DNA of 64,000 nucleotides from Planctomycetia bacterium. GTDB lineage: Bacteria; Planctomycetota; Planctomycetia; Pirellulales; PNKZ01. Every line of letters begins with the position of its first letter. Within the stretch, counting starts at the first letter, position 1. The translations under genes and the position numbers were made by a program. Location: positions 69,890-133,889 of the forward strand of contig JAIOPP010000084.1 of assembly GCA_021413845.1 (NCBI GenBank), read 5' to 3'. The notes under the pieces were generated by a model. The model did not search any database. It was not told the DNA's origin and worked only from the letters and a program-made list of their open reading frames with translations. Of the stretch, positions 19,112-33,950 are shown one piece after another.

Positions 19112-21028
19112 TCAGCGCAACAACAGCAAGCGATAGCGTCGCCGCTCGCCGTCGACATCGCTGTGCCACTCGCCGACGGTCGTCGGGCCGGTCGTGGGTC
19201 GGGCCGCCATCGCCGTGTCGGCCAGCGTCGACAGCGTGGCATCATAGCCGATCGTGCGGCTGCTTGCTCCGTCGTCGGCCTCGTTCTCGGCGAGAAAAAG
19301 ATGGGTAAAACCCGCGGCTTTTAATCGCTGCTCGAACGGTGTCGCGTCGGCGAGCGTCGGGCGATTGTAGCCCGTATAGCGACGATAGATGTTCTCGCGC
19401 GTCCAACGAGGGTAGTAGTAAAACGCGCGTTGTTCTTGGCTCAGCACATGCGCATCGCTCGACAGATTGCGATTGATCCACGCGGCCGAATCGAACGTCG
19501 GCTCGCGACGCGCGAGAAACGCTTCCCGCGATTCCATTCCCGTCGCCACGGCGAATAGAGGGCGTGCTCTCACCATAGGAATCGTTGCAAGGCAGAGCAG
19601 CACGATTACGAAAGCCGAGCGTGCGATGCGTCGTGGCAACGGCGACCAGTTCGCCATCTCGCAGAGAGCCGCCATCGCGATGACGGAGAAGATCGGTACC
19701 AGCGGAAACAGAAACCGCACGTTTTGTCGTAACAGCACGCAGCCCATTCCGTAGAACGCCGCCGTGATCGCAAGCGGTCGCAATTCGCGGCGTCTGGAAG
19801 AAACGATCACGCAGGGGGCCAGCATCAGGAATAACGGCCCGAGTTGTTGCCCGCGCCCCCCGAATCGCTCGGGCTCCATCGTCATCGACCAAGGTGCTAA
19901 GAGCAGAGCCCCGAAGCCACGGCCGAGCGGCGTCTTCGATTCCGGGAAGGTCGACGGTGCTCCCTCGGTAAAGTGTGTGGAGAGAAACGGAAACACCGGA
20001 TCGCCTCGATGATAGCCGGCTCGCAGGTACCAAGGTCCGGCGACGACCGCGGCCGCGGCAACCGCGACGCACGTACCTCGGATCCACTGCGGCCGGCTGG
20101 AAAGTCGCGCTCGCGCGATCGTCGCGAAAGCGAGAGTCGCAAGTACGCCCGCGAAGACGAGACCGGTGTACTTCACGGCCAACGCTCCGCCGACCATCAA
20201 GCCGAGCATCGTTAACGATGATTTTCGCGGCAACGAATCTCGATTCGGATCTTGCGCCGCGCGCAGCCAGGCGGTGAGCGCCAATGTCGTATAAAGCGAA
20301 AGCGCAACGTCGTTCAAGGGGGCGGTCATCTGATTGTTGATGCCGGGCGTAAGCAGCACGATGCAAGCCGCACCGGCGCTCCCGTTCCGTCCTAGCAGCG
20401 GCAAGGCCAGCACATAAGCAGCTCCTGCCAAAAGTGCGCCGCTGAACCAGTGCATCAGTTGAGCACCGCTTGCGCCATCGATCGCGAGCCCCCACAGAAA
20501 CCACATCTCGGCGAGCAACGGAAACGTCGAGTTATCGTTGTCGCGATAGTAAGTCAGCGCATTATCAGCGAGAAACCGCTTCGGCAATTCCAAGTGATAA
20601 CAAAGCGCATCGCCTGCGAGCGGGGGAGCGAGCGCCGCAACAAACGAAGCCGCAAGTGCGATACCGGCGCATCCTGCGACGAGCCTCCGCAAGTTCAAGG
20701 GGAGTGTATCGTCCAGCGTCCTCGCGACCGGTTGTTCGCTCCAAAAACGGCGAAGTTCGCTACGCATCCGAACGACGCCGAGCGTGGCGGCTACGAGCGT
20801 CAGCGCGACGATCCAGTTTTCGTATAGCATGCCGGCCAACCCGAGCAGCCCTAAAAACGTTCCCCACAGCAACAACCCTAATGCCGCTTCCCAGACGACC
20901 CGACCACGCCGCTCGCTCGCGATCGTAACACAGCAATAGGGGAGCGCGATGCTGCCGACCGACCATGCCGCCGTTGCGATCGTCGCGAAGGCGAGCACCG
21001 TACGAAGTTGCAGCAGCAGGGGAATCAT
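19112..21028 (-). CDS. Polytopic membrane protein, GT-C (ArnT/PMT-like) glycosyltransferase candidate
   Basis: About 10 or more hydrophobic helices followed by a ~150-aa soluble C-terminal domain. The YHLELPKRF loop resembles GT39/GT83 families. ATG at 21026-21028; the track uses TTG at 21040. Confidence 0.55.
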
Positions 21029-21056
21029 GGCGTCGCTCAATCGCTCGGAAACCGAA

Positions 21057-21281
21057 TCAATTCGAAACGAAATAGCCGCTCAACATTTTCACGAGATACA
21101 CGACGGCAACCGTCGAGATCCAAATCGCGCCGAGCCAATGTTGCCAAGCTGCCGTCGGATGGCGGCGAGGTTCCGCGTCGGGACGCGAGAGCAAGCTTTT
21201 CACGATCCATTGACGCGCCTTGCGACTTTCCGCCGACATGCGCGAACGCTGCGATTTCGGCTCTCGGATGGGTGCGATCAT
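21057..21281 (-). CDS. Small (74 aa) basic protein with one C-terminal TM helix
   Basis: Its ATG overlaps the stop of the upstream GT9 gene as ATGA (21278-21281). TM segment WLGAIWISTVAVVYLVKML. Confidence 0.35.
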   Translation of the reverse strand: MIAPIREPKSQRSRMSAESRKARQWIVKSLLSRPDAEPRRHPTAAWQHWLGAIWISTVAVVYLVKMLSGYFVSN

Positions 21282-22537
21282 GGTCGTTTATCGTTTCCGA
21301 GTCGCTTGTTCGACTGTGCGTTCGATAAGAAATGCGGCGCCATCGTGGCCGGCGTATCGAGGATTCGTCGAACGGTCTGCATCACATCGTCGGGCGTGAG
21401 TTCGCTCATGCACGGATGATTCGCCACCGGACAACGCGAAGCGAAGCACGGCGCACACGCCACGGCATGACGCACCACGGCAACGCGATGTCCCCACGGT
21501 TGCCATTGGTCCGACACGGTCGAGCCGCTGAATAAGGACACGACGCGCGCACCGGTCGCTGCCGCAAGATGCGCCGGGCCGCTATCGGCACCGATGAACA
21601 GTTCCGTCCGTTGCACGAGCGATGCGAGTTGGTCGAGCGTAAGCCGTCCGGTCCAATCCATGACCCCCGGCCAGAACATTTCTTGCGTGATTTCGCGCCC
21701 CGTTTCGACGTCTCCTTGGCCTCCGACCAAGATCACGCGGGCATGACGTTCAACGATGGCTCGGCCCAAGAGTTCGCGCCAATGCTTCACCGGCCAAGCC
21801 TTCGCTGAAGTTCCGGCGCCGACATGCAAGGCCCACAACGGTCGACTTCCTTGTCGGAACTCGCCGAGCATGTGCGTGACGAAACGAATCGCTTCCGACG
21901 ACGGAACGAACTTCGGCCCTTCCGTGGAGCGGACGTCGGCTCCGAGAGCCGCGAGTAGCGCTCGCCGCGAATCGACTTCATGCCGCCCGCGTACGAACTC
22001 CGCCGAATCCGTAAGCAGGAAACCTCCGCCGGCGCAAGCCCAACCGACGCGCCGCGGGATGCCGCACAGCCGCATCAGCACGGCATTAGGAAAGTCGCCT
22101 CGGACATCGATTGCGAGATCGTAGCATCGAGCTCGAAGCGCCGGAGCCCAGAGATAGAACGGGAACGGCCAACCCGCCTTAAAGTTTCGGCGAAAACGGT
22201 TCCAACGGCTGACGTAAATGCGCCCGATCTCCTTCGAGGCCGCGAAGACTTCGCAATTCCACGGTGCCGCGAGCACATCGATCGTCGCTTGCGGAAACCG
22301 TCGCTTGAGCGACGCAAACATCGAGGTCGTCATGACGGCATCGCCGAGATGATCGAGTTGAATCAAGAGGATCTTGCCGACCGCTTCCGGATCGAGCGGT
22401 TTCGCAGCGGCTTCGCCGAACACCCTTCGCCAAGCATGCAACCATGCCGCGCCGATCGCATCGACGACGGCGAATAGCCATCGCCAGCGCGCGCGGACGA
22501 ACCGGTAGCGAGTTGTGAGAGAGTTATTGAAGTTCAT
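21278..22537 (-). CDS. Glycosyltransferase family 9 (heptosyltransferase-like)
   Basis: ILLIQLDHLGDAVMTTSMFASLKRRFP and LFIGADSGPAHLAAATGARVVSLF motifs. Confidence 0.85.
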   Translation of the reverse strand: MNFNNSLTTRYRFVRARWRWLFAVVDAIGAAWLHAWRRVFGEAAAKPLDPEAVGKILLIQLDHLGDAVMTTSMFASLKRRFPQATIDVLAAPWNCEVFAASKEIGRIYVSRWNRFRRNFKAGWPFPFYLWAPALRARCYDLAIDVRGDFPNAVLMRLCGIPRRVGWACAGGGFLLTDSAEFVRGRHEVDSRRALLAALGADVRSTEGPKFVPSSEAIRFVTHMLGEFRQGSRPLWALHVGAGTSAKAWPVKHWRELLGRAIVERHARVILVGGQGDVETGREITQEMFWPGVMDWTGRLTLDQLASLVQRTELFIGADSGPAHLAAATGARVVSLFSGSTVSDQWQPWGHRVAVVRHAVACAPCFASRCPVANHPCMSELTPDDVMQTVRRILDTPATMAPHFLSNAQSNKRLGNDKRP

Positions 22538-23669
22538 AAGCTGCGCGCGTTGCGACGGCGACCTGTTTCCAAGTAAACGAGTCGGCGACCAACCGTGAAA
22601 GTTCCGCTGAACGAGGGCGTTCGATGGCGCGAAGCACCGCCGAATGAATCTGTTTTAAGTCGTGCGGTAAGACGTACTCCGCGTGCGGTCCGAAATATTC
22701 TTCGGCGCAACCTCCGCGCGGCAGCACGAGCGGCGTTCCGGTCGCAGCGGCTTCGAGTGCGGCCAGTCCGGGCGTCTCGTACCACCCGACGAGCGTCAGG
22801 CAACGACAGGCCGCATAGGCCGAGGCGAGCAACGGGTCGTTGTGCCCTAGAGCGCCGAGAAAGTGAACGTTCGAGTCCGCTTCATGTCGGCATGTCGCCG
22901 CATACTTTTCATGGCCGGGCACGACATCGCCAAGAATCACCAGCGTTTGTCCGGAGTTGCGCAGCGCGCGTATCAAACCGAGTTGGTTCTTGCGCGGCTC
23001 GATCCGTCCGACGCAGAGCACGAAATCGCGCAACCCGAAACGGCGCGTAAAAGCCTGATCGTCGGCGAGTGCGAATCGTTCGTCGAACCCGTTTGGAACG
23101 ACGCGAATCTTCTCGGCCGGTACTTCAAATAACCGCATCAATTGTTCCGCTTCCGACTGCGAGTTCGGCAGCAGCAGATCGGCCGTGTGATAGAGCCGCC
23201 GTCGCCAACTAGATAAGCCCGGCAGCGCGGCCCGCACGGCATATCGCGCGGCGGCGCGACCGCGCGCCAACCAGCCGGCGGATTCTCGCCAAGCATTGCG
23301 CCAGTCGAACCAGGCGATTGTCGACAGCGCGACGCGCTTCCCGTTTCGACGAGCGGCTTCGACGAGCGGCAGAAAGTCTTGTCTGCTTCCGAAAAAATGG
23401 AGCAGGTCGACGTCGTGGTTAAGCGAATCTTCCCATGGTCGCCAGAGCCTCGCGTCGAGTCCCGCTTCGCGTAAGCCGGCGGTCGTTTGCATGAGTTGAA
23501 CTTCCCCACCGCCGGGAGCCGCACAAGCGTCGAACCGTCCGATCGTGCGAACGCGGAAGGGTTTGGTCGACAGTGCGGCCGCTTGCGCAGTCGCTTCTCG
23601 TCCGTGCGTTGTCGCAGCGGCAAGCCAATTGCCGCGATCCTCTGCGGGAGTGTGGTAAACGTTGTGCAT
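22524..23669 (-). CDS. Glycosyltransferase family 4 (GT-B, group 1)
   Basis: GGGEVQLMQTTAGLREAG, VGRIEPRKN, ETPGLAALEAAATGTPLV. The ATG at 23667-23669 overlaps the upstream TGA by 1 nt (TGATG). Confidence 0.85.
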   Translation of the reverse strand: MHNVYHTPAEDRGNWLAAATTHGREATAQAAALSTKPFRVRTIGRFDACAAPGGGEVQLMQTTAGLREAGLDARLWRPWEDSLNHDVDLLHFFGSRQDFLPLVEAARRNGKRVALSTIAWFDWRNAWRESAGWLARGRAAARYAVRAALPGLSSWRRRLYHTADLLLPNSQSEAEQLMRLFEVPAEKIRVVPNGFDERFALADDQAFTRRFGLRDFVLCVGRIEPRKNQLGLIRALRNSGQTLVILGDVVPGHEKYAATCRHEADSNVHFLGALGHNDPLLASAYAACRCLTLVGWYETPGLAALEAAATGTPLVLPRGGCAEEYFGPHAEYVLPHDLKQIHSAVLRAIERPRSAELSRLVADSFTWKQVAVATRAAYELQ

Positions 23670-25153
23670 CAGCCGCGGATCCGTCGCAAAGTTTTCTTCA
23701 TCATGCCCGACCAATGGCCGGCATCGATCTCATCGACCGGCGTCACACGTTCCCAATCAAGGGCCCGACGGAGGATTGCTTTCACGTCGAGCGGCTTCGG
23801 CAGTCGCACCGGCGCGGGTAAGCGATAGGGTTCCCTAGAAGCGAACGAAAGTGCGCCGCGGGCGATGCGCAGCCGTGCCCGATCGAGCGCCACGCTAGCC
23901 GTTCGATCCTCGTCCACGATTTCGAGCGAGCAGGGACATTGCTGCGGCAAGCGATCTGCGGCTACAAGCCAACCATCGTCGGTGGCATACACTTCGAGTT
24001 CGATTCGGTTGCGAAGTCGCCACCAACGTTGGAACTCGAAGAGACTCGTGCGCCATACGTCCGGCAACTGCGAGATCGATCCGAGCACGCGCCGGAGCAA
24101 CTCCGGGTAGCGGCCTACGCGGCCGTCGGGATGGCCGTAGAAGAAAATCGGTATTCGCGCTGCGTGCAAAGAGTCGGCCGCCGCGAGGAAGTGTTCGATC
24201 GTCGCTTCCACGGCTTCCCGTCGCGTCGATTCGTCGAGCACTTGCCTATTCACCGCAAGGTCGGCAGCCGCTTCCAGAACGATACCGAGGCACACCGGAT
24301 GGATCGGGATCTGTAAGACGTCGGTTCTCGTCGGGAAAAAAGGGAGCTCGTCGTAAGCGAAACCGAACTCGGAGCTATGCGTGATGCCGAGCGTTTCGAG
24401 AGCCGTCGCGAGGCCTGGGTTGTAGCGTCCGTGCGGAGCTGCGAAGCCGGCGGGCTCAATGCCGCAACCGCGAAGCACGGCGATGCCGCGCTCGATATTC
24501 GCGATGTTTTCCGCTGCCGTGCGGTAAGTGTGATGACGGTAGCCATGCGAGCCGATGTCGAGTCCTGCGAGTTTGCGAACGGCATCTGCGTGTCGTTCGT
24601 GAGTCGAGCCGCAGACGAAGTGCGTCGTCATCGACGAATGCGGCGCGATTGCGTCGAGCGTCCGCTCGAAATCTTCGGCGACGAATTCATCGTGATCGAA
24701 ACGAAAATTGGCGACGGTCCGATAGGGCCGCGGATAGGGTGCAACGCGCATCCACACACCGCCGCGCCTGTCGACTTCCGCGCGTAACAAGTTCATCACC
24801 TGTTCGCGAATCGCTCGTCGATCCATGGCGGCAATCTCTTCCGTCGCATCCCATTCGCCGACTCGCCAGGCAGCCCGCGAGGCTACCGCGGTTTCAATCG
24901 AGGCGAAAGCATCGCTGCCCAGGCCTTGATCTGCGAGGCGTTTTCGAAGCGTATCGACGTCGATCGCTTGCTGCTGCGAGGTTAAGAGTGGGTGATCTCG
25001 ACGCGTATGCGAATCGAAGAGCACGAACCTGCCGTTCGACCGGCCCGGCTGGAATTTTACGGTTGGAATTCCCTCTTGCGCGAGCATCGAAGCGAGCGCG
25101 TCGGGCACCGCGTCGAGCAATAGCGGCAGCAGCGGAGGAGTCGCGGGCTTCAT
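23669..25153 (-). CDS. Polysaccharide deacetylase (CE4/NodB-like) with extra N- and C-terminal regions
   Basis: FRFDHDEF..., IGSHGYRHHTY, GFAAPHGRY: NodB-like Asp/His motifs in the central domain. Confidence 0.7.
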   Translation of the reverse strand: MKPATPPLLPLLLDAVPDALASMLAQEGIPTVKFQPGRSNGRFVLFDSHTRRDHPLLTSQQQAIDVDTLRKRLADQGLGSDAFASIETAVASRAAWRVGEWDATEEIAAMDRRAIREQVMNLLRAEVDRRGGVWMRVAPYPRPYRTVANFRFDHDEFVAEDFERTLDAIAPHSSMTTHFVCGSTHERHADAVRKLAGLDIGSHGYRHHTYRTAAENIANIERGIAVLRGCGIEPAGFAAPHGRYNPGLATALETLGITHSSEFGFAYDELPFFPTRTDVLQIPIHPVCLGIVLEAAADLAVNRQVLDESTRREAVEATIEHFLAAADSLHAARIPIFFYGHPDGRVGRYPELLRRVLGSISQLPDVWRTSLFEFQRWWRLRNRIELEVYATDDGWLVAADRLPQQCPCSLEIVDEDRTASVALDRARLRIARGALSFASREPYRLPAPVRLPKPLDVKAILRRALDWERVTPVDEIDAGHWSGMMKKTLRRIRG

Positions 25154-25986
25154 GCGGCTTCTCCTGCGCTAAGGCTCAAGCGCGCAACCGTCGCCGGTTC
25201 GCGATGCTCATGTCGCTCGGCGAGCATCTGCCGCCAGAGTCGGCGATGCTTCGTCGCCAATACCCATTCCGAGTAGCCGCTTAAGCCGCAAAATGTCCAG
25301 CCGACGGGACCGTCGAGCCAGCCTTGTTTCCAAACGAGCCGTCGAAATAGTTCTAGGCCGGGGCGCAGCCAAGCGTCGGTAAACGACGGCCGTTGCCAGC
25401 GAGCAACGCGGGCCTCGGCTTCCAGCGTCGTGTAGCGTTGCATCTTGCGATGAAAAGCTTCCGTCGTCGGGAGCGTGAAATGTTCGAGATGCGCATCGAG
25501 CTTGCCGACCGCGCCTGTGATCGCAAATCGTTCGTGGACGGCACCGCCCCAGCGTCCGGAGCCGCGACGCATGAGCCTGAGCGGGATGTCGTTTTGCGTG
25601 CCGCTGAAGCGAAATCGCCGACCAAAGATCGTGCTGCGGATCGGCACGCGATAGCCGGAACAAGCTTCGGTTCGAATGCGATGGCGAACCTCGGCGACAA
25701 GCCGCTCGGTCGAGCGTTCGTCGGCGTCGATGAAGAAGATCCAATCGCTATGGGCACCGTCGATAGCGGCGTTGCGCTGGTTGGCGAAGTTATCGAACGG
25801 ACGCTCGATCACGTGTGCTCCGTGGCGCCGAGCGACTTCGACGGATCGATCGCGCGAGCCGCCGTCGACGACGACGATTTCGTCGGCCCATGCGAGGCGC
25901 GGAAGCAGATCGTCGAGGTGCGATTCCTCGTCGAGTGCGATCACGGCCGCGGTAATCGAGTTTGCGACGTCGAGCTTCGACTTCAC
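25150..25986 (-). CDS. Glycosyltransferase family 2
   Basis: ITAAVIALDEE, VVVDGGSRDRS, FFIDADER (DxD). The GTG start at 25984-25986 overlaps the upstream TGA (GTGA). Confidence 0.85.
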   Translation of the reverse strand: MKSKLDVANSITAAVIALDEESHLDDLLPRLAWADEIVVVDGGSRDRSVEVARRHGAHVIERPFDNFANQRNAAIDGAHSDWIFFIDADERSTERLVAEVRHRIRTEACSGYRVPIRSTIFGRRFRFSGTQNDIPLRLMRRGSGRWGGAVHERFAITGAVGKLDAHLEHFTLPTTEAFHRKMQRYTTLEAEARVARWQRPSFTDAWLRPGLELFRRLVWKQGWLDGPVGWTFCGLSGYSEWVLATKHRRLWRQMLAERHEHREPATVARLSLSAGEAA

Positions 25987-27767
25987 GCGACGACCCTCAC
26001 TGTCGCGCGGATTCGAGCCGTTCTCGTGAGCAAAAAGAATCGCGCAATCCAGCGCGCGTTGTAGTAGCAGGCGATCAAGGCGAGTTCGGCGGTGAGATAA
26101 CCGGTTGCGAGCGCGGCTGCGGTCAGATGAATGCGCACGTCCGCATTTGCCGGTAGATGGTAGAGATACCGCGGCCACGACATCGCTTGCGGGTGTGCGT
26201 CGGCCGCTTGGTTCGATGCGTCCGCTGCGGTCGTGTCAGCGAGTTGAGTGGGGCCGAATAGCGTCTCTCCGGCGGCGAGGCCGTACATCAGCAAGTATTT
26301 TCCGAATAGAAATCCGATTAGGCAGACCCAAGGCCATTGCGATTGTGTCGCGTTCGCAGCGCAAACGGCCATGCAGACGTGCAGCCCGAGATCGACCGCT
26401 TCATCGACGTTGGCATCGAGCCAAGCCCCGAGCGGCGTTGCGCGGGCTTGTCGTCGGGCGAGAATTCCGTCGGCCCGATCGAAGAACCAAGCGACCAAGA
26501 CGAGGATTGCAGCGACAAGCCCGTAGGTTGGCGACGCAAGGAGGCACGCGGCTGCCGAGCAGGCGCATATCAGACCTAGAAGCGTAAGATGCCACGGACG
26601 AACGCGTGTTTCGGCAAGCCCCTTGGAGAATAGGGCAGCTGCCGGACGGGAATACCATCGAGCGAGCGGATAATTCACGGCGCGACGTGCTTCTTCGGCG
26701 TCGAGTTCCGTCGCTTGATCACGACATGATTGAGCAGCGGTAATTACGAGCAGGCGAGTCGGTGAATGCCGTGAGAAGAATTCTCGCTCGCGAGCCGCCG
26801 AGTCAGCGCCGGTCGAGGCTTGGAAGCGGACGTTGCCCGAGCGCGCTTGCCATACGGCCCGTGCTTCCGAATAGGCGCGCAGGAATGGGAAGCGATCGCC
26901 GACGGGGGGTCCTATAGCGCGCACAAGATCGCGAGCAGCGCGTAGCGGCAGTCGGCAAAAATACGCCGCACGATGCCGCAGGCAGCGCAGGTTTTTCCAT
27001 TGAAATAAGAGGGTGTTTCGGAGTGCTAGTCGGTCGGATTCGGTGTTGCCGAAGACACGGCCGAACGTCGCACAGCCGCGATGCAAAGCCACGGCTTCCG
27101 GTATGTAAACGGCCTGATATCCGGCTAGAAAACCTCGATAAGCGAAATCGAGATCCTCGATTCGGCCCGGCAGGTACAGCGGGTCGAAGCCGCCGAGTGC
27201 GACGAAGATGCGACGATCGACGGCCAGCGCCGCGCCTGCCGATGCGGTCGGGCCCGGCAGGTCGGCAACCTCTTCGCAGCCGGCAAACAGAGACGTCGCT
27301 TGTACGATTCCGTGGCGCATTACAACCGAGGTCTTGAAGCCTTCATAGGTCACGCCGTCGAACAGGTAGCAACGAGGCGCGGTCATGAAGATCTGCTCGT
27401 TCGCAAATGTCGGTTCGCAAGGAGCGTCTGAGGAATGCTGCGCGAGGAGCGGTTCGACGAGCGGATCGATGGCATCGTCGGCGAGCTTAATGTCGTTGTT
27501 CAGGAGCACAAGGACACGGCTCGAGAGTTCGCGCGCAATGGTATTGAACGAGGAGAGGCCGTCGTTCGGGAGGGAGCGAACCGCGACCGTTGGAAACTCG
27601 GCGGCGAGCCAGGCCGTAGGGTCGTCGCTCGATCGATTGTCGACGACGGTCACCCGGCAAGTGTGGCGCGAGGCGGCGGCCGCACGTACGATGCTCGGCA
27701 AACACTCGGCCAGCAGTGCGCGGCCGTCGTAGTTCAACACCAAGACATCGATGTCGGCAGCGTCCAT
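25983..27767 (-). CDS. Fusion protein: N-terminal GT2 glycosyltransferase plus C-terminal CDP-alcohol phosphotransferase membrane domain
   Basis: N-terminus: DVLVLNYDG, VVDNRSSDD, LLNNDIKL (GT2). C-terminus: canonical D-x2-DG-x2-AR-x8-G-x3-D-x3-D = DRADGILARRQARATPLGAWLDANVD (26403-26480) within TM helices. ATG at 27765-27767 preceded by GGGGGAAG. Confidence 0.8.
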   Translation of the reverse strand: MDAADIDVLVLNYDGRALLAECLPSIVRAAAASRHTCRVTVVDNRSSDDPTAWLAAEFPTVAVRSLPNDGLSSFNTIARELSSRVLVLLNNDIKLADDAIDPLVEPLLAQHSSDAPCEPTFANEQIFMTAPRCYLFDGVTYEGFKTSVVMRHGIVQATSLFAGCEEVADLPGPTASAGAALAVDRRIFVALGGFDPLYLPGRIEDLDFAYRGFLAGYQAVYIPEAVALHRGCATFGRVFGNTESDRLALRNTLLFQWKNLRCLRHRAAYFCRLPLRAARDLVRAIGPPVGDRFPFLRAYSEARAVWQARSGNVRFQASTGADSAAREREFFSRHSPTRLLVITAAQSCRDQATELDAEEARRAVNYPLARWYSRPAAALFSKGLAETRVRPWHLTLLGLICACSAAACLLASPTYGLVAAILVLVAWFFDRADGILARRQARATPLGAWLDANVDEAVDLGLHVCMAVCAANATQSQWPWVCLIGFLFGKYLLMYGLAAGETLFGPTQLADTTAADASNQAADAHPQAMSWPRYLYHLPANADVRIHLTAAALATGYLTAELALIACYYNARWIARFFLLTRTARIRATVRVVA

Positions 27768-27836
27768 GCTTCCCCCTTGCAAGAACTCGTCCTGAGTTCC
27801 GCGAGGGAGCAATTTAGAAGCGCGGCGAGGGTCGGG

Positions 27837-28802
27837 TCAAGATGATACGCCGGCATCGGCTCCGACGAACTGCGGTGTTTCGGCATAGGTAACCGTTGCC
27901 GTTACCGACAGCGGATCTGCCGGCACGGGCTCAGCGAACCACCAACCATCGCGAAACTCCAGCGTGTCGGTCTCGCGAACGCGATACCACGCGGCAAATT
28001 CTCGCTCGGCTTCGTCGTTCTTCAATCCTCGCACGACAAGGACCAACGCTAGAACCGGTGCCGGCAGCGCCATCGTGCCGACATAAATACCGGCCAGAAA
28101 TGGGCCCGACTCCAAAAAGAAAATACGAAAGATACCGACGATCGCCAAAGCGAACATCACGATATGCGTTTCATACGCCTTGAGCACCAGCCATTTAATC
28201 CATCCGATCGGCGAACGGCGCGGCATCGTCGCAGCCTCGGGGCGGCCGCCCCCTCCGCCGACGATGCGCAGTTCGCCGTGCAGCAGCTTCAGACGTTGCA
28301 CGAACGCCTTGTAGCGGGCATCGTGGCGCAGCCCGAGGATGAGCGCACTCCAGCCCCAAAGAATTCCCGCGACGCACCAAATCGAAAAACCGGTCTCGCG
28401 CATCAGGCCGAAGCCGAGCCCGATCGGTAATAGCATGTTCACGCTATGGTGCATTAAATAGTCGATCATCGTCCCATCGAGCGAAGCGGTGCGATGCCAT
28501 CGAGCGAGCTGACCATCGACATGGTCGAGTAGATACCACAACGGCAAGAGCAGCGCGCCGATGAGCCAGCCCCAAGCGGTGCCGAAACCGAATGCGACGA
28601 TCGCGGCCGATGCGACGAGCATCGCTCCGGCCGTCGCCTGATTCGCCGACATGCCCCATGGCGCAACGATACTTGTAATGTGCAACGCCGCAGGACGTCC
28701 GAGCCGTCGAGCGGTCCAAGAGCCGAGCCGATTTGGATCCGGTTTCAAACACCGCCGACGAAACGTCTCCCAATCGGTCAAAGAAGCGATGGTTTCATCC
28801 AT
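27837..28802 (-). CDS. CDP-alcohol phosphotransferase-family membrane protein (variant motif)
   Basis: DHVDGQLARWHRTASLDGTMIDYLMH (28449-28526) fits DxxDGxxAR-x8-G-x3-D, but the last Asp position reads His. Polytopic membrane protein. Confidence 0.7.
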   Translation of the reverse strand: MDETIASLTDWETFRRRCLKPDPNRLGSWTARRLGRPAALHITSIVAPWGMSANQATAGAMLVASAAIVAFGFGTAWGWLIGALLLPLWYLLDHVDGQLARWHRTASLDGTMIDYLMHHSVNMLLPIGLGFGLMRETGFSIWCVAGILWGWSALILGLRHDARYKAFVQRLKLLHGELRIVGGGGGRPEAATMPRRSPIGWIKWLVLKAYETHIVMFALAIVGIFRIFFLESGPFLAGIYVGTMALPAPVLALVLVVRGLKNDEAEREFAAWYRVRETDTLEFRDGWWFAEPVPADPLSVTATVTYAETPQFVGADAGVSS

Positions 28803-30663
28803 GTGCAGCTTCCTCGCTTATCGCCGGTGCATGCAATCGACCGAAATGCGAATCGGGAATGCATTGCGACGCGTCATGCGATCGGTCGAACAACAATTCG
28901 ACGATGCGAACCGCGGCCTTCTTCGTCGTTTTTTCGGTGGTTTCCGGTGTCGATGGATTCGTTGTGGGGGACGTGCGGCGCAGGGCCATCTGCAGTAACG
29001 GGCGAAGCTCTACGAGCAAACGTGCCGAACCGGCGAGGCCGTACCAGTCGGCGGGGAGTACTTGGCCCGACCCTTGCGGCAAGAGTTGGATGACGGGCAA
29101 GCCTGCCGCCGCGGCATCGACGCCGGCGCTCGACGCGCAACTTAAGACGCAATCGCTCTCGGCTAAGACTTCGGCTAAGGACTGTTTCGCGATCGTACGA
29201 TGGCGTAGAGTCGGAAACTGCTTTAAGGTGCGCGTGAGAATCGGATCTTGGATAGCGCGGGGATGTGGCTTTACGATCAGTTCGGCATCTCCGAGTTCCG
29301 CGACCGCCGCGCAAGCTATGTGCAGCATCGCGGCGTAAGTTCGACTGGTTAAATGAAACTCAACGGCGTCGGGCCGGTCGTCGCGCGGCGGCACCGTCGC
29401 CAGGAGGACGATGCGGTGCTTAGCGTCGGAAGTTGAGTTGCGATTTTCCGGAGAGGCGCGATTCCGTAATGCTTTGCAAGCAACCTGTTGCTGGGCCGGT
29501 GCGCCGGTAACGACGATACGGTCTCTCGCCACGCCCCAGGCTTCGAGTTGCCGCCGCGTTCCTTCGTTCCACGCGCAGAATAGATCGGCTGCTAAAGGCG
29601 CGAAACCGAATCGAATGCAACAGACTCCATGCTGTACGACGAACGACGGAATGCCGAGCCGACTCGCATGTGCCACGGTAATACGAGCCAGAGGCGTAGC
29701 ATCTTCGTCCACTACGACATGCGTCGGCCGTAGCGAAGCTAGGTGCTCGCCGACGCGCCGCCATTGTCGTGCTTGAGCGATCGCCAATCGCTTACGCCAG
29801 CGGCGGTACCAAGTCTCGACGACATCGCCGAGATCGATATCGCCGTAGGCGACCGTCTCTCGTAGGAGCGTCTGCGGAAAAGCGTCGACGGCCGTCTCTT
29901 CATCATCGCAAGTAAGCCAGGCGATGCCGCTCGCTCGACGTTCGATCCACGCGCCGACGGCGAAACGGTCGTAAAGCCAGGCAGCATGCGCACCACGGTC
30001 GAGCACGGCATCGCACACGTCGTCGAGAATCCGCGGATTGCCTACGAACAAGACTCGGGCACGATGGTCGGAAGCGGCAGGAGAGAATTCGTGCGTTCGC
30101 GCCGCACCACGGTTCACACCGCGGTTGGCGAAGATCCAAGCGAGCGCTCGCCGCCACCAAGCATTTCGCGGCACCGAAAACGGCGCGACGGTTTCATCAT
30201 CGCGCATAATGAAATGGATTCGTAACGTGAAGCCGTAGGTTTGCGACATCGCGCGCCAGAGCGCGACGTATTCGTTGTCGCAGCGCGGGGAGACATAAAG
30301 CTCGATTTTCGCAGAAACGTCGTCGTTGGGGCAATTCTGCCAAAAGGCGATGATTCTAAGCCAACGCAGCGCTTCATATCGCAAACGAAGAATGTTGATA
30401 TCGGCGAAGTTCGGTCGCACACTACCAATGTGTGAAGATTCGGCCGGCGCAGCGGCGGCACCGATCTTCGTCGCCAATCGTTCCGCTTCGATGTCTAGAT
30501 GCGCGAAGTGGGAGGCGTCGATATAGGTGTCGAGTGATATGAAATTTTTCGAAACGCCGGCTTCCCAATCCCCTTCCAAGAGCAGTAGTCGTTCGCTCGC
30601 TGATGGCGAATCCGGCTGGAGCAACAGGTCGGGTACCAAGTTGCGGCGTGCGAAAACCAGCAT
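28795..30663 (-). CDS. GT-B-like capsule/teichoic-type transferase candidate (KpsS/KpsC- or TagF-like C-terminal half), 622 aa
   Basis: AELIVKPHPR plus VLSCASSAGVDAAAAGLPVI resemble the K-x-HP and C-terminal Rossmann motifs of the Capsule_synth and Glyphos_transf families. True start is the ATG at 30661-30663 (MLVFARRN), 2 nt after the HAD stop. The longer 838-aa ORF overlaps the HAD gene. Confidence 0.5.
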   Translation of the reverse strand: MLVFARRNLVPDLLLQPDSPSASERLLLLEGDWEAGVSKNFISLDTYIDASHFAHLDIEAERLATKIGAAAAPAESSHIGSVRPNFADINILRLRYEALRWLRIIAFWQNCPNDDVSAKIELYVSPRCDNEYVALWRAMSQTYGFTLRIHFIMRDDETVAPFSVPRNAWWRRALAWIFANRGVNRGAARTHEFSPAASDHRARVLFVGNPRILDDVCDAVLDRGAHAAWLYDRFAVGAWIERRASGIAWLTCDDEETAVDAFPQTLLRETVAYGDIDLGDVVETWYRRWRKRLAIAQARQWRRVGEHLASLRPTHVVVDEDATPLARITVAHASRLGIPSFVVQHGVCCIRFGFAPLAADLFCAWNEGTRRQLEAWGVARDRIVVTGAPAQQQVACKALRNRASPENRNSTSDAKHRIVLLATVPPRDDRPDAVEFHLTSRTYAAMLHIACAAVAELGDAELIVKPHPRAIQDPILTRTLKQFPTLRHRTIAKQSLAEVLAESDCVLSCASSAGVDAAAAGLPVIQLLPQGSGQVLPADWYGLAGSARLLVELRPLLQMALRRTSPTTNPSTPETTEKTTKKAAVRIVELLFDRSHDASQCIPDSHFGRLHAPAISEEAAHG

Positions 30664-30665
30664 GG

Positions 30666-31439
30666 TCAGGCTGCCTCGCGAAAAGCGGATTCGTCGCCGA
30701 GGCGCGTCTCGAAGAGTTGCAGCAATTCTTCGAAGCGATGGAGAAACACCTCGGCCACGGCATCGCGCTCGTAGTGAATCGCAACGGCAGGCATGCCCGC
30801 CCGTCGCGCGCCGATCAATTCCTCGGCGTCGTGGCCGACGAACGCCGTTTGTGCCGGTGCGAGGCGCAGTCGCTCGATGGCAGTTCGATAGCAAACGCCG
30901 GCGGGTTTCGTTTGTTTCAGATCGGCCGACGAGACGACGGCGCTGAAGTAGCGACCGATCCCCATCTGCGCGAGCCGTGGCTCGATCGCCTCGGCCGGCG
31001 ATTCCGAATCGCTCAGCACCGCCAGTCGCAGGCCGTTCGCATGCAGTCGTTCCAGCGTGGCTCGGACTCCCGGAAACGGCCGAACATCTTGCTCGAAGTC
31101 CCGCTTTTGTCGGTTGGAAGCCAAGATCACTTCGTCGACTTGGCTTTCGGTCAGGCCGGTGTCGCGAAGGAAGGTATGAAACGCCTCGGCGTAGTCGCGC
31201 TCGCCGCGGTGCACGGCATCGAGATAGTCGCGGTCCCACACTTGAAAAAAGCTGCGGTAGGTGGTTTGCAGCCCCATTCGATGAAGCTGTTGCAGGAGCC
31301 ATCGCCGCCACACGGTTGCATCGAACAAGACATCGCCCATGTCGAACACGATGCCGCGCACTTTTTGAAACCGCGGCGACGCATTAATACCGTCGTCGTC
31401 GTGCGGCGTGTCGTCGTGAGAGAAAAGCCGGAGCGGCAT
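30666..31439 (-). CDS. HAD-superfamily hydrolase (phosphatase)
   Basis: Motif I IVFDMGDVL; motif III/IV region VGHDAEELIGARRAGM. Confidence 0.8.
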   Translation of the reverse strand: MPLRLFSHDDTPHDDDGINASPRFQKVRGIVFDMGDVLFDATVWRRWLLQQLHRMGLQTTYRSFFQVWDRDYLDAVHRGERDYAEAFHTFLRDTGLTESQVDEVILASNRQKRDFEQDVRPFPGVRATLERLHANGLRLAVLSDSESPAEAIEPRLAQMGIGRYFSAVVSSADLKQTKPAGVCYRTAIERLRLAPAQTAFVGHDAEELIGARRAGMPAVAIHYERDAVAEVFLHRFEELLQLFETRLGDESAFREAA

Positions 31440-31483
31440 GAGATTGGACTTTCGTACGTGTATGCTGGGGTGTTGCGGCGCGG

Positions 31484-32536
31484 CTATTGAACATCGCTAC
31501 GGTAGATCGTTTCGTCCGCGTCGATGTCGCGGAGCAATCTGCGGCCGACAATCGTCTCTCGCTGCGTCCAGGCGATACCGTCGCCCGGCGATTTCAGCGT
31601 GAACATCGACTCTTCGAGCACGGTGCCGGCCGGAAGCGAGCGCACCGTCACGAGGCTGCGTCCGAGTTTGTTCCGCGTCGGTTCGACCTCGGCGATGGCC
31701 GGCTTTTCGGCACTCCCTAGGGCTAGCTCGATGCGGCGAATCTGTTCGATGAGCGTGCGCAGCTCTTCCGGTTCGGCCGAGCAAGCATGGTCGGTCCCTT
31801 TCAGCGTTCGATCGAGCGTCAGATGCTTTTCGATGATCGACGCACCGAGCGCCACTGCGGAAGTCGCGATGAGCGTGCCTGTCGTATGATCGGAGAAACC
31901 GACGACCGAGTCGTAGCGTCGACGCAGCGTTTCGATGCTGCGCAAATGTGCCTGATCGTCGGGCGTCGGATAGAGCGATGTGCATTGCAACACGGCCGTT
32001 GGGCAGCGTGCCTCGGCCGCCACGGTCATCGCGGCATCGATCTCCGACCACGACGACATGCCCGTGGAAAGGATGAGCGGCTTACCCAGCTCGGCGACGA
32101 ACCGCACGAGCGGCAGGTTATTCAAATCGCGCGAGGCGATCTTAAATGCGTCGACCTCGGCGTTCGCAAATTCCCGTGCGCTGGCAACGTCGCACACCGT
32201 GACGACGAAATGCATGCCATGCGATCGGGTTCGCGCCGCGAGCGCTAAGTGCGTCTCGACCGACAGTTCAAGCACGCTCCGATGTGCGCCGTAGGTGTCG
32301 CCGAACGAATGGGCCGAGTCGTAGCGCCGATTGCGTGACGCCTTCGTAAGCTCCGAGGGGAGGTGTCGTTTGACGAGTTTCACGGCGTCGGCACCGGCCC
32401 AGGCCGCGGCGTCGACGAGTTGTTCGGCTAATTCTCGGCTGCCGTTATGGTTCTGTCCGAGTTCGGCGACGACGAACGTCGGGCTTCCGGGCCCGATCGA
32501 GCGGCGCGCATTGATTCGAAGCGAATTGCCGTGCAT
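31484..32536 (-). CDS. NeuB-family nonulosonic/ulosonic acid synthase with C-terminal SAF domain
   Basis: FVVAELGQNHNGS..A..LVDAAAWAGADAVK; GFSDHT; C-terminal SAF-like SLVTVRSLPAGTVLEESMFTLKSPGDGI. ATG at 32534-32536 preceded by GGAAAGGA. Confidence 0.85.
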   Translation of the reverse strand: MHGNSLRINARRSIGPGSPTFVVAELGQNHNGSRELAEQLVDAAAWAGADAVKLVKRHLPSELTKASRNRRYDSAHSFGDTYGAHRSVLELSVETHLALAARTRSHGMHFVVTVCDVASAREFANAEVDAFKIASRDLNNLPLVRFVAELGKPLILSTGMSSWSEIDAAMTVAAEARCPTAVLQCTSLYPTPDDQAHLRSIETLRRRYDSVVGFSDHTTGTLIATSAVALGASIIEKHLTLDRTLKGTDHACSAEPEELRTLIEQIRRIELALGSAEKPAIAEVEPTRNKLGRSLVTVRSLPAGTVLEESMFTLKSPGDGIAWTQRETIVGRRLLRDIDADETIYRSDVQ

Positions 32537-33886: not shown

Positions 33887-33907
33887 CGGCGTGCCGAATG
33901 GTAAATA

Positions 33908-33950
33908 GGGGAACGCTCTACATCGAGAACGTAGTGCGTTCCCCTTTTAT
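33908..33950. terminator. Intrinsic terminator between convergent genes
   Basis: GGGGAACGC (33908-33916) / GCGTTCCCC (33936-33944) stem, extended by TCTAC/GTAG, then TTTTATATTTT. The stop codon of the minus-strand HAD gene (33947-33949) lies in the T-tract. Confidence 0.6.

Follow-up and report, generated by a model that had tools for sequence, protein, structure and literature searches.

The minus strand of the 64-kb stretch of DNA analysed here (the window) carries, at positions 19112–32536, eleven consecutive open reading frames (ORFs) for sugar- or lipid-handling proteins. In gene order, these are a NeuB-family synthase, a HAD phosphatase, a GT-B-fold protein, a variant CDP-alcohol phosphotransferase (CDPa), a fusion of a GT2 to a CDP-alcohol phosphotransferase (CDP-AP), a soluble GT2, a CE4 deacetylase, a GT4, a GT9, a 74-amino-acid (aa) peptide and a GT-C membrane protein. 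A sequence-only reading had described these genes as tightly joined, and re-reading the DNA returned every ORF and all ten junctions as described: gaps of 44 nt (NeuB stop at 31484 to HAD ATG at 31439) and 2 nt (HAD TGA at 30666–30668 to GT-B ATG at 30663); an 8-nt overlap of GT-B and CDPa (28795–28802); a 69-nt gap between CDPa and the fusion (27768–27836); 4-nt overlaps at GTGA (fusion and GT2, 25983–25986) and ATGA (GT2 and CE4, 25150–25153); a 1-nt overlap within TGATG (CE4 and GT4, 23667–23671); a 14-nt overlap of GT4 and GT9 (22524–22537); a further 4-nt ATGA overlap (GT9 and the 74-aa peptide, 21278–21281); and a last gap of 16 nt if GT-C starts at TTG 21040, as that reading chose, or 28 nt from ATG 21028, the start in the public gene call. 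Genes overlap at six of the ten junctions, and a seventh is the 2-nt gap. For the fusion and the GT-B, database gene calls made independently (P0001 and P0121) use the same starts as that reading, and tight coupling of the fusion to GT2 and of GT2 to CE4 also appears in the gene calls of two related loci (L084 and L002). Promoter and terminator consensus scans gave counts not above shuffled expectation; we therefore infer co-transcription of the eleven genes from their spacing only.

HMM searches upheld all the family assignments, with scores above the Pfam gathering threshold for NeuB and SAF, HAD, CDP-OH_P_transf (twice), Glycos_transf_2 (twice), Polysacc_deac_1, Glycos_transf_1, Glyco_transf_9 and PMT/PMT_2. 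The first gene (31484–32536) encodes a 350-aa NeuB-family ulosonic (nonulosonic) acid synthase (PF03102, 243.9 bits, plus SAF) that scores 305 bits against the NeuB model TIGR03569, under the equivalog cut-off of 399, and 224 bits against PseI. It is followed by a 257-aa HAD-IA phosphatase (30666–31439; PF00702, 84.5 bits), for which the best NCBIfam match, TIGR02253 ‘CTE7’ (66.7 bits), is below its cut-off. The 622-aa protein encoded at 28795–30663 reached no Pfam gathering score, and its assignment is borne out by a GT-B fold in the AF2 model (pLDDT 85.8). Its best Foldseek matches are UDP-GlcNAc 2-epimerases, NeuC and MurG, and its family profile matches KpsC, a CMP-Kdo transferase, across the HP motif (E = 1.2e-3). 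Family members conserve the HP (36/36) and DED (35/36) motifs and never QxxxKD (0/36). This HP-motif protein is a candidate CMP-ulosonic-acid transferase; given its nearest structural matches and the missing QxxxKD, it could instead be a NeuC-like precursor enzyme. CDPa (321 aa, 27837–28802; PF01066, 27 bits against a gathering score of 22) has the signature DxxDGxxAR..GxxxDxxxH, with His in place of the fourth Asp in all locus orthologues seen and in relatives at about 30% identity.

Downstream of the 69-nt gap, the 594-aa fusion (25983–27767; PF00535 and PF01066) joins an N-terminal, cytoplasmic, WbbL-like GT2 domain to a canonical CDP-AP membrane domain, with an invariant DxxDGxxAR..GxxxDxxxD motif (alignment A1). 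The best matches of its CDP-AP domain are AF2299 (57.8 bits) and Mycobacterium tuberculosis PgsA1 (42.7 bits), and the domain scores 55 bits against the archaetidylinositol-phosphate synthase model and 39 bits against PIP synthase. Among 548 homologues of the fusion, all those with a named source are from Planctomycetota. The 278-aa GT2 (25150–25986; PF00535, 52.7 bits) starts at a GTG inside the stop overlap of the fusion and has no predicted transmembrane helix; in the PDB it is closest to GmaR (40 bits) and SunS, enzymes that glycosylate proteins or peptides. Next comes a 494-aa cytoplasmic CE4/DUF2334 deacetylase (23669–25153; PF01522, 38.2 bits; PF10096, 27 bits) with no convincing transmembrane segment or signal peptide and a single weak hydrophobic window (residues 279–297). 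The retaining GT-B-fold GT4 (381 aa, 22524–23669; PF00534, PF13692 and PF13439) best matches MshA (44.7 bits) and PimB′ (33 bits) in the PDB. The 419-aa GT9 (21278–22537; PF01075, 124 bits) is heptosyltransferase-like, scoring 125 bits against TIGR02195 heptosyltransferase II, just under the equivalog cut-off of 134.6, and matching WaaF (78.7 bits) and WaaC (42 bits). The 74-aa micro-protein (21057–21281), which we call MIAP, has a MIAPxR N terminus, a basic middle, an AWxAW motif and one C-terminal transmembrane helix. In 36 of 48 loci, the interval between GT9 and GT-C holds an orthologous small ORF that can be aligned with it, and products of 71 and 93 aa were independently called at this position in L084 and L002. 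The run closes with a 638-aa GT39/ArnT-like GT-C (19112–21028; PF02366, 30.3 bits; PF13231, 28.6 bits). Its AF2 model (pLDDT 86.6) best matches ArnT (5ezm, E = 3.8e-9), with AftA, STT3 and ALG9 next; about 590 columns align to ArnT compared with about 295 to Pmt structures. It is a predicted polyprenyl-phosphate-sugar-dependent membrane glycosyltransferase. The previously described enzyme mix is upheld: LPS-core-type (GT9, GT4, GT2, CE4 and ArnT-like GT-C), capsule-type (NeuB and KpsC-like GT-B) and phospholipid-type (two CDP-alcohol phosphotransferases).

Comparison with related loci, all from metagenome-assembled genomes and all but one labelled Planctomycetota, divided this run. Seven genes, from the fusion to GT-C (19112–27767), form a conserved core. 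Of 41 independent loci with 8.5 kb or more of downstream flank, 36 have it complete and with its gene order unchanged, a recurrence that exceeds chance. Fusion-protein identities across the synteny-compared loci are 39–62%, and retention of gene order at this divergence is more in keeping with a housekeeping structure (an LPS core, for example) than with a capsule or O-antigen that varies between strains. The four upstream genes (27837–32536) are a facultative accessory module found in about half of the related loci; where present, it always adjoins the core directly on the upstream side and shares its orientation. The single 13-kb operon proposed earlier therefore stands as a contiguous, tight run, but the eleven genes are two modules rather than one evolutionary unit, with the 69-nt gap as their boundary. 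As that reading supposed, the combination appears not to be a described locus: our literature search found no published account of the gene cluster.

The accessory module varies in content. Among 51 loci with 6 kb or more of upstream sequence, HAD-IA is syntenic with GT-B and CDPa in 29 and a Polysacc_synt_3 (Wzx-like) gene lies between GT-B and CDPa in 28, whereas NeuB occupies its position in just 4 (6 loci overall: L004, L005, L008, L020, L081 and L082). In most loci this position holds a cytidylyltransferase, whose profile matches PDB 6oew (58 bits), then KdsB and NeuA; in L082 the two genes are adjacent. Core-only loci have no Wzx-like gene, and many have no cytidylyltransferase nearby. 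In the 64-kb window, Wzx, cytidylyltransferase and polysaccharide ABC exporter genes are all missing, as the sequence-only reading observed, but most related loci carry both a flippase and a nucleotidyltransferase, which makes the absence of these two from the window lineage-specific rather than system-wide.

The locus extends upstream. A divergent plus-strand gene (32870–33886) for an RmlD-fold, sugar-nucleotide-reductase-like SDR (PF04321, 68.8 bits; only 59 bits against TIGR01214, cut-off 224) occupies the same position in at least 11 loci. Beyond it on the minus strand are a second HAD hydrolase of the beta-phosphoglucomutase family (33947–34648; PF13419, 98 bits; TIGR02009, 106.8 bits), a CoA-pyrophosphatase-like Nudix hydrolase (34636–35316; PF00293, 53 bits; 85 bits against NF007980, under the cut-off of 134) and a 534-aa DUF6798 polytopic membrane protein (35313–36917; PF20604, 94.8 bits) with at least eight hydrophobic segments. 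These three genes, previously noted as following the run, are syntenic in 14, 9 and 6 of the 51 loci, respectively, which makes them part of an extended locus. The DUF6798 protein has no sequence match in the PDB, and the proposal that it is a second GT-C found no confirmation.

Natural fusions tie the phosphotransferases to glycan enzymes. Besides GT2–CDP-AP, we found GT-B–CDPa (P0380), Wzx–CDPa (P0381, P0382 and P0392) and CDP-AP–CDPa (P0393) proteins, which indicates that the phosphotransferases share intermediates with the flippase and the glycosyltransferases. In about ten loci the core is otherwise entire but the CDP-AP motif is missing on both strands, which fits a decorating role for this domain better than an anchor-forming one.

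We give about an even chance to the reading that the locus builds a lipid-anchored, LPS-core-like surface oligosaccharide of Pirellulales-type planctomycetes, substituted through phosphodiesters. We infer every substrate, the order of steps and the anchor. The product would contain heptose, an amino sugar, an ulosonic acid and phosphodiester-linked substituents, and the phosphodiester-decorated glycolipid or LPS-like molecule suggested earlier is plausible. Acting as soluble or peripheral enzymes on the cytoplasmic side of the inner membrane, the WbbL-like GT2 domain, GT4 and GT9 would extend a lipid-linked acceptor with hexose or HexNAc and heptose-type sugars. The CDP-AP domain would use a CDP-activated donor to place a phospho-alcohol or a phosphatidyl group on the same membrane-bound intermediate, forming a phosphodiester. 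Together, the 278-aa GT2 and CE4, which is translationally coupled to it, may supply an N-deacetylated amino sugar, possibly converting polyprenyl-P-HexNAc to polyprenyl-P-HexN as ArnC and ArnD do. After translocation, the ArnT-like GT-C would add, on the periplasmic side, a sugar from a polyprenyl-phosphate donor, with MIAP perhaps a small subunit or tether of the assembly machinery. NeuB and HAD would produce the ulosonic acid, the HP-motif GT-B would transfer it, presumably in a CMP-activated form made elsewhere in the genome, and CDPa would attach a second phospho-alcohol.

Most likely, the acceptor is the lipid A–Kdo region and the product an LPS inner-core-type oligosaccharide with phosphodiesters. 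The nearest matches of GT9 are WaaF and WaaC, and the structure of GT-C most resembles that of ArnT, which modifies lipid A; the ulosonic-acid module, with NeuB and cytidylyltransferase alternating at one position, has a GT-B that shares its HP region with KpsC. Lipid A-core is flipped by MsbA, so the Wzx-type flippase of related loci is unexpected and weighs against an LPS core. The sub-cut-off heptosyltransferase II score of GT9 and the unanchored 278-aa GT2 with its GmaR/SunS kinship also count against the favoured reading, as does the absence of lipid A, Kdo (waaA, kdsA/B) and ADP-heptose genes from the window and the gene-called flanks of the related loci examined. The window also has no CMP-sugar synthetase, which the accessory pathway needs; this weighs against the favoured reading.

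It seems unlikely, if worth serious consideration, that the product is instead a phosphatidyl-anchored glycolipid of the PIM/LM/GPI type, in which CDP-AP makes a phosphatidylinositol-phosphate-like anchor from CDP-diacylglycerol, the fused GT2, GT4, deacetylase and GT9 build a GlcN-containing glycan, and GT-C extends it in the periplasm as PimE/PIG-M do, giving an LPS-core-like glycan on a glycerophospholipid. The CDP-AP domain is indeed closest to inositol-phosphate-type enzymes and GT4 to MshA and PimB′, which both act on inositol acceptors, but these matches are at a generic family level (33–58 bits), and the window has no inositol-phosphate synthase. A deacetylase beside a glycosyltransferase suits a GlcNAc-to-GlcN step, the many core-only loci without a nearby cytidylyltransferase suit a housekeeping CDP-diacylglycerol donor, and GT-B occurs fused to CDPa, phosphatidylglycerol being a known acceptor of KpsS/KpsC-type enzymes. 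However, we know of no GT9 in such pathways, the fold search places GT-C closer to ArnT than to PimE, and the roughly ten loci that keep the rest of the core without CDP-AP have no such domain within 10–20 kb and would have to make the anchor in trans. A published parallel is a putative Bacteroidetes inositol-lipid cluster of an NTP-transferase, a CDP-AP and a HAD (PMC9246714).

An undecaprenyl-(pyro)phosphate-linked glycan, destined for a polysaccharide or for the glycosylation of proteins or peptidoglycan, appears less probable still. Here the cytoplasmic glycosyltransferases would make an oligosaccharide or repeat for export by a Wzx-type flippase whose gene lies elsewhere in the genome, and a PMT/GT39-like GT-C would place sugar on envelope proteins or another polymer (for example, holdfast or a surface glycoprotein). 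The Wzx-like gene of the accessory module favours this scheme but is missing from core-only loci and the window, and GT-C matches the protein O-mannosyltransferase models PMT and PMT_2, yet Pmt structures align over about half the columns that ArnT does. The GmaR/SunS kinship of the 278-aa GT2 would fit, as would the deacetylase, cytoplasmic CE4 enzymes such as Caulobacter HfsH acting on lipid-linked GlcNAc oligomers in holdfast-type pathways. Against this, the window and annotated related loci have no WecA/WbaP-type initiating phosphoglycosyltransferase, Wzy, chain-length regulator, ligase or outer-membrane export gene, and gene order is kept over an order-level clade, unlike in typical polysaccharide loci. 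We consider it very improbable that two or three unrelated, separately transcribed functions (the supply of an ulosonic acid, a pair of phospholipid head-group enzymes and a set of LPS-core glycosyltransferases) simply adjoin, with spacing that reflects genome compaction only. About half of the loci lack the accessory module, CDP-AP can be missing from the core, a promoter-like hexamer pair lies within the module-boundary gap and promoter- and terminator-like sites are no commoner than in shuffled sequence; however, the fusions physically join the groups, the module keeps its place and orientation, and most junctions overlap or nearly so.

To our knowledge, no CDP-alcohol phosphotransferase has been shown to decorate a glycan, which weighs against the reading that we favour. 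If this reading is correct, the locus would represent an unusual use of phospholipid-type enzymes in the making of an envelope glycan.

Eleven consecutive open reading frames (ORFs) occupy the minus strand of the window DNA at 19112-32536. They encode, in order, a NeuB-like synthase (NeuB), a HAD protein, a 622-aa protein (GT-B), a 321-aa variant CDP-alcohol phosphotransferase (CDPa), a 594-aa fusion of a GT2 and a CDP-alcohol phosphotransferase (CDP-AP) domain, a 278-aa GT2, a 494-aa CE4 deacetylase, a GT4, a GT9, a 74-aa peptide and a GT-C. Each junction was re-read from the DNA, which bore out both the run and all ten junctions reported in the sequence-only reading. NeuB and HAD lie 44 nt apart and HAD and GT-B 2 nt apart, GT-B overlaps CDPa by 8 nt, and 69 nt separate CDPa from the fusion. 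Overlaps follow at fusion–GT2 (4 nt, GTGA), GT2–CE4 (4 nt, ATGA), CE4–GT4 (1 nt, TGATG), GT4–GT9 (14 nt) and GT9–peptide (4 nt, ATGA), and the peptide is 16 nt from a TTG (21040) or 28 nt from an ATG (21028) of GT-C, the ATG being the start in the public gene call. The starts chosen for the fusion (594 aa) and GT-B (622 aa) are the same as in independent database gene calls. Consensus scans of 17.5–37.4 kb, judged against shuffled sequence, returned 3 promoter-like sites (4.8 expected) and 15 terminator-like sites (21.5 expected), neither above expectation, so that 'operon' and 'translationally coupled' are terms we infer from spacing and conservation. GC content is 0.57–0.63 across the window and an unbroken 0.60–0.62 over the locus region, and this uniformity puts a horizontal-transfer island out of favour.

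Gene neighbourhoods were compared across Planctomycetota by mapping the window proteins with tblastn onto 84 fetched loci. The order fusion–GT2–CE4–GT4–GT9–GT-C is kept complete in 36 of the 41 loci with at least 8.5 kb downstream, with 39–62% fusion-protein identity in the core-complete loci. Among the 51 loci with at least 6 kb upstream, CDPa and HAD are found upstream in 29 and GT-B in 28; a flippase gene of about 1.7 kb (Polysacc_synt_3, Wzx/MOP-type) sits between GT-B and CDPa in 28, and a cytidylyltransferase of about 250 aa takes the exact slot of the window's NeuB in 26. NeuB itself is in that slot in only 4 of the 51, and in one locus (L082) genes for cytidylyltransferase, NeuB and HAD follow one another. 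By this synteny, the 13-kb 'operon' of the sequence-only reading survives as a conserved seven-gene core (fusion to GT-C) but not as one unit, the four-gene accessory module (NeuB to CDPa) being facultative. The window holds a reduced variant of this core and accessory arrangement, with the boundary at the 69-nt gap. Further upstream, recurrent genes encode DUF6798 (a putative second GT-C in the sequence-only reading), Nudix, a second HAD, a divergently placed RmlD-fold reductase and, in some loci, Acetyltransf_6; given this recurrence in related loci, the genes at 32870-36917 are part of an extended locus.

The fusion has more than 500 homologs, of which all source-named ones are from Planctomycetota; every named homolog comes from a metagenome-assembled genome (MAG) and none from a cultured isolate. 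A scan of one genome per GTDB species gave 80 loci, in MAGs of Pirellulales, Thermoguttaceae or 'Planctomycetaceae' and, in one case, on a contig that bears the label Nealsonbacteria. The latter (L059, JABMRB010001388.1), a 7-kb contig assigned to 'Candidatus Nealsonbacteria', encodes CDPa, the fusion and GT2 at 51–56% identity and is most likely a mis-binned planctomycete contig. One Pirellulales MAG lineage (L035, L044-L046, L061, L062, L064, L066, L068, L070) keeps the whole core with a GT2-only first gene of 330–390 aa, and no CDP-AP domain was found in the 5–21 kb fetched for these loci. L063 and L078 carry divergent versions (about 39–48% identity) with the CDP-AP motif DRLDGAVAR..GARLDACCD, and in L081 NeuB is directly upstream of a fusion-type gene that matches only the GT2 part of the query, with no GT2 gene after it; these three loci point to further architectural variants.

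Several other features of the window adjoin the locus or lie further out. In the 69-nt gap that forms the boundary between accessory module and core, sigma-70-like hexamers (TTGACC, 18 nt, TAAATT; 27811-27840, minus strand) precede a ribosome-binding-like stretch, GGGGGAAGC, ahead of the fusion ATG; the scan overall was not above chance. An L-2-hydroxyglutarate oxidase gene (17880-19076, minus strand; NF008726, 558 bits), which shares the strand of GT-C and lies about 35 nt downstream of it, may be on the locus transcript. It also follows GT-C in L004, L005, L015 and L020, and has no obvious tie to glycan synthesis. The locus is adjoined by a methylcitrate-cycle pair (37103-39114, plus strand) that is not in the sequence-only reading: a methylisocitrate lyase gene (prpB equivalog, 375 bits) and, overlapping by 4 nt, a citrate-synthase-family gene that is probably a 2-methylcitrate synthase. 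At 10233-16781 (plus strand) lie long ORFs with no Pfam match (10233-11432, 12391-14454, 14711-15640 and 15516-16781), of which 12391-14454 (687 aa) has a GC3 of only 0.59; third-position GC lower than that of the neighbours suggests that some of these ORFs may not be real genes, or may be lineage-specific. Two very large plus-strand ORFs are found at 48076-53034 (1652 aa) and at 60846-63998 (more than 1050 aa, running off the window).

The family calls of the sequence-only reading for the eleven-gene run hold on HMM search, with one exception in score, the 622-aa GT-B protein, which reaches no curated cut-off. The fusion matches Glycos_transf_2 and CDP-OH_P_transf (PF01066, 42.1 bits) and CDPa matches PF01066 at 27 bits, both above the gathering score of 22 bits. 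In the fusion, the signature D1xxD2GxxAR...GxxxD3xxxD4 is complete (DRADGILARRQARATPLGAWLDANVD) and invariant in the alignment carrying this motif (A1) and in all loci and orthologs. The corresponding CDPa sequence, DHVDGQLARWHRTASLDGTMIDYLMH, has His in place of the fourth Asp and so departs from the complete signature. This His is present in every ortholog of the loci (DHVDGQ[LI]AR..GxxxDxxxH) and in relatives of about 30% identity, and we regard CDPa as a distinct subfamily of putative phosphotransferases. The best matches of the fusion CDP-AP domain are AF2299 (57.8 bits), Mycobacterium tuberculosis PgsA1 (42.7 bits) and the archaetidylinositol-phosphate synthase model (55 bits). Against the phosphatidylinositol-phosphate and archaetidylinositol-phosphate synthase models NF045883 and NF040950 (cut-offs 170 and 180 bits), the fusion scores 39 and 55 bits and CDPa 18.5 and 38 bits; inositol-phosphate-type enzymes thus appear to be the closest subfamily of the fusion domain, at scores far below equivalog cut-offs.

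An exhaustive search of a 50%-identity library found 1850 relatives of CDPa at E <= 1e-3 and 255 at E <= 1e-10. Some are natural fusions: database protein P0380 joins a GT-B (32% identity to that of the window over 540 aa) to CDPa, P0381, P0382 and P0392 are Wzx-like + CDPa fusions, P0393 is a tandem of canonical CDP-AP and CDPa, and P0438 unites CDPa with an FkbM methyltransferase. By Rosetta-stone reasoning, these fusions and the GT2–CDP-AP fusion provide strong evidence that the phosphotransferases would share their membrane-bound intermediates with the glycosyltransferases and flippase. In about ten loci the core is whole, its first gene is GT2-only and neither strand carries a CDP-AP motif, which makes the CDP-AP step a predicted add-on to the core in cis. 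As a separate observation, the variant DHVDGQ[IL]AR..G...D...H reaches well past this locus, into 255 representative clusters at E <= 1e-10; P0423 and P0431 are listed with P0393 and P0438 as proteins of this group.

The remaining core proteins are predicted glycan enzymes and one micro-protein. The 278-aa GT2 matches Glycos_transf_2 (nearest GmaR and SunS), CE4 matches Polysacc_deac_1/DUF2334 with weak similarity to chitin deacetylases, and GT4 matches Glycos_transf_1 and related models, with MshA and PimB' nearest at generic scores. GT9 matches PF01075 at 124 bits (gathering score 22), reaches 125 bits with the heptosyltransferase II model TIGR02195, just below its cut-off of 134.6, and has WaaF (78.7 bits) and WaaC as its nearest proteins in the PDB. 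Neither the 64-kb window nor the annotated flanks of L001, L002 and L084 yielded genes for lipid A, Kdo or ADP-heptose synthesis. A C-terminal four-Cys cluster in GT9 (21278-22537, minus strand; residues ~368–391, ACAPCFASRCPVANHPC) could bind metal. GT-C matches PMT and PMT_2 at 30.3 and 28.6 bits, above the gathering scores. Searched by sequence against the PDB, GT-C, GT-B and DUF6798 gave no usable match, and the GT-B and GT-C folds come from structure prediction. The GT-C model (pLDDT 86.6) has ArnT as top match (E = 3.8e-9, TM-score 0.55), followed by AftA, STT3 and ALG9, with PimE and Pmt lower; its GT-C fold with a periplasmic C-terminal domain places it among ArnT-like/GT39-GT83 proteins. 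Between GT9 and GT-C, a small ORF aligns in 36 of 48 loci, encoding an N-terminal MIAPxR, a basic middle, an AWxAW motif and one C-terminal transmembrane (TM) helix, and on this evidence the gene for the 74-aa peptide (MIAP) is real and conserved. Hydropathy assigns NeuB, HAD, GT-B, GT2, CE4, GT4 and GT9 to the cytoplasm, and CDPa, the C-terminal half of the fusion, the 74-aa peptide and GT-C to the membrane.

The accessory module has the marks of ulosonic-acid metabolism. NeuB has both the TIM barrel (PF03102, 243.9 bits) and the C-terminal SAF domain (PF08666, 42.3 bits); at 305 bits against the NeuB equivalog (cut-off 399.65) and 224 against PseI (340.25) it stays below both, a level of score that points to no specific product. 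HAD belongs to HAD-IA, with TIGR02253 'CTE7' as best NCBIfam match, which we take to be the subfamily holding animal Neu5Ac-9-phosphate phosphatase. A cytidylyltransferase profile built from 23 loci has PDB 6oew ('Cytidylyltransferase') as a full-length match at 58 bits, with KdsB, IspD and NeuA next, and the protein looks like a CMP-ulosonate-type enzyme. The AlphaFold model of GT-B, built from a 36-sequence alignment (pLDDT 85.8), shows a GT-B fold and, at the N-terminus, an additional domain of about 200 aa; the nearest folds are UDP-GlcNAc 2-epimerases, NeuC and MurG. All 36 members of its family contain HP, and 35 of the 36 contain DED. H467-P468, in the C-terminal nucleotide-binding half, aligns with the HP motif of the CMP-Kdo transferase KpsC, and the family profile aligns with that region at E = 1.2e-3. 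GT-B scores 13.6 bits against Capsule_synth (PF05159, gathering score 20), to which 16 of the 36 members are weakly similar (best E-value 6.5e-6); QxxxKD, a motif of beta-Kdo transferases, is present in none of the 36. Because GT-B is found fused to a membrane enzyme, we consider it a probable CMP-ulosonic-acid transferase. A NeuC-like precursor enzyme, to which the similarity in fold is real, is a minority alternative: the match to PF02350 (24.3 bits, gathering score 30.6) is below cut-off, and the strand end corresponding to HGD(T), where UDP-GlcNAc 2-epimerase/NeuC has its catalytic acidic residue, reads VVQHGV and lacks the Asp. A TagF-type CDP-glycerol transferase was rejected, with no Glyphos_transf match in the 36 members.

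Among known systems, LPS inner- and outer-core loci (waa/rfa: WaaC/WaaF GT9, WaaG GT4, WaaE-type GT2 and WabH/WabN GlcNAc transferase plus deacetylase) served as a reference set. They share with this locus a GT9 closest to WaaF/WaaC, a GT4, a small soluble GT2, a transferase paired with a cytoplasmic deacetylase so as to give, presumably, an amino sugar, cytoplasmic-face enzymes and an order conserved over a large clade. Unlike them, this locus is without linked waaA, lipid A, Kdo or ADP-heptose genes, its GT9 is under the equivalog cut-off, and its two CDP-alcohol phosphotransferases, its GT-C and its conserved micro-protein are not waa components. In the Arn/Lgm/Flm lipid A pathways (ArnC GT2, ArnD CE4 deformylase, ArnE/F small membrane proteins, ArnT GT-C), a polyprenyl-phosphate-linked N-acyl aminosugar is made, de-N-acylated, flipped and transferred in the periplasm. 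The subset of GT2, CE4 N-deacylase, small membrane protein and GT-C may by analogy parallel this logic, with ArnT the best structural match of the GT-C. It differs in that the GT2 lacks a TM anchor and does not score as ArnC-like, the small protein is single-TM where ArnE/F are four-TM SMR-like proteins, the ArnA/ArnB sugar-nucleotide tailoring genes are missing, and four more glycosyltransferases are embedded in the operon.

We propose, holding the reading about as firmly as we doubt it, that the two-module locus assembles a conserved lipid-anchored envelope oligosaccharide. Assembly would take place at the cytoplasmic face; the oligosaccharide would bear phosphodiester substituents installed by CDP-AP as well as an amino sugar and a heptose-type sugar, joined in this lineage by a ulosonic acid that derives from NeuB, and the ArnT-like GT-C would complete it in the periplasm. 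The most likely anchor is lipid A-Kdo, as in an LPS core. A phosphatidyl(inositol)-anchored PIM/GPI-like glycolipid, which we consider unlikely, would draw on the same enzyme classes as the mycobacterial PIM/LM and eukaryotic GPI-anchor pathways (CDP-AP: PgsA1/PIS; GT4: PimA/PimB or PIG-A; N-deacetylase: PIG-L; GT2: Ppm1/DPM1; GT-C: PimE/PIG-M), and the nearest relatives of the CDP-AP (inositol-phosphate-type enzymes) and GT4 (MshA, PimB') agree with it. Unlike those pathways, this locus has a GT9, a CE4 rather than an LmbE/PIG-L deacetylase, no linked inositol-phosphate synthase and a CDP-AP that is dispensable in about ten loci, and these CDP-AP-less core loci weaken CDP-AP as an obligatory anchor-forming step. 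The nearest published parallel for part of the locus is a putative 'NTP-transferase + CDP-AP + HAD' inositol-lipid cluster of Bacteroidetes (PMC9246714). As in that cluster and IPCT/DIPPS, the canonical accessory module unites cytidylyltransferase, HAD and CDP-AP, and the fusion CDP-AP domain matches AF2299 and DIPPS. Unlike the cluster, the trio is interleaved with GT-B and flippase and joined to a five-GT core, the cytidylyltransferase of related loci looks CMP-ulosonate-type (6oew, KdsB, NeuA), and NeuB takes its place in the window. In the lipocone paper (PMC12419801), CDP-AP enzymes come up solely as unrelated analogues.

A polyprenyl-linked pathway that makes a polysaccharide or glycosylates proteins seems quite improbable. 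Of the Wzx/Wzy-pathway genes, related loci carry a Wzx-like gene only, and the initiating phosphoglycosyltransferase, Wzx and Wzy are all missing from the window. The earlier claim that the window lacks Wzx/Wzy, ABC exporter and nucleotidyltransferase genes was borne out, with no Wzx, cytidylyltransferase or polysaccharide ABC exporter found there, although related loci do carry the Wzx-like gene and a cytidylyltransferase. The sole ABC system in the window (43400-45852) has solute-uptake domains (SBP_bac_3 and BPD_transp_1). The Group 2 capsule anchor system (KpsS/KpsC beta-Kdo transferases acting on phosphatidylglycerol, with KdsB/KpsU and KpsF) resembles the locus in the HP-motif region shared by GT-B and KpsC, a neighbouring ulosonic-acid synthase or CMP-ulosonate-type cytidylyltransferase, and association with a phospholipid head-group enzyme. 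It differs in that here Capsule_synth falls under its gathering score, QxxxKD is missing, the synthase is NeuB (nine-carbon sugars) rather than KdsA, and neither a KpsM/KpsT ABC exporter nor KpsD/KpsE is present. That unrelated functions are merely juxtaposed is, with a facultative accessory module on one side and natural fusions on the other, very unlikely in our judgement.

A tentative and somewhat doubtful reading is that the CDP-AP enzymes are dedicated glycoconjugate-pathway enzymes, or that an LPS-core-like glycan sits on a phospholipid anchor. One CDP-AP is fused to a glycosyltransferase; the other belongs to the hitherto unremarked Asp-to-His subfamily, whose members include fusions with a Wzx flippase or with a KpsC-like GT-B. 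The pathway would yield either an LPS-core-like oligosaccharide that contains heptose and ulosonic acid and has a glycerophospholipid (phosphatidyl) anchor in place of lipid A, or a lipid-linked glycan given phospho-alcohol substituents by the CDP-AP mechanism; we know of no description of either in bacteria. A literature search found no paper on this locus, in keeping with the sequence-only reading that it is not a described one. All its enzyme classes are already known; new are their conserved combination, the GT2–CDP-AP architecture, the Asp-to-His CDP-AP subfamily with its fusions, and the MIAP micro-protein.

Planctomycete envelopes are poorly understood, and to our knowledge neither an LPS core nor a major surface glycolipid has been defined chemically in any member of the Pirellulales. 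Since order and content are conserved across many uncultured lineages, the locus product is likely to be a standard envelope component. CDP-alcohol phosphotransferases are, as far as we know, known only for bulk phospholipid head groups and the solute di-myo-inositol phosphate. If CDP-AP enzymes act on lipid-linked glycans here, the catalytic repertoire of the superfamily would extend past phospholipid head groups and compatible solutes, and would include a new subfamily, DxxDGxxAR..GxxxDxxxH, with hundreds of members. The natural fusions and the conserved 74-aa micro-protein offer concrete handles for biochemistry.
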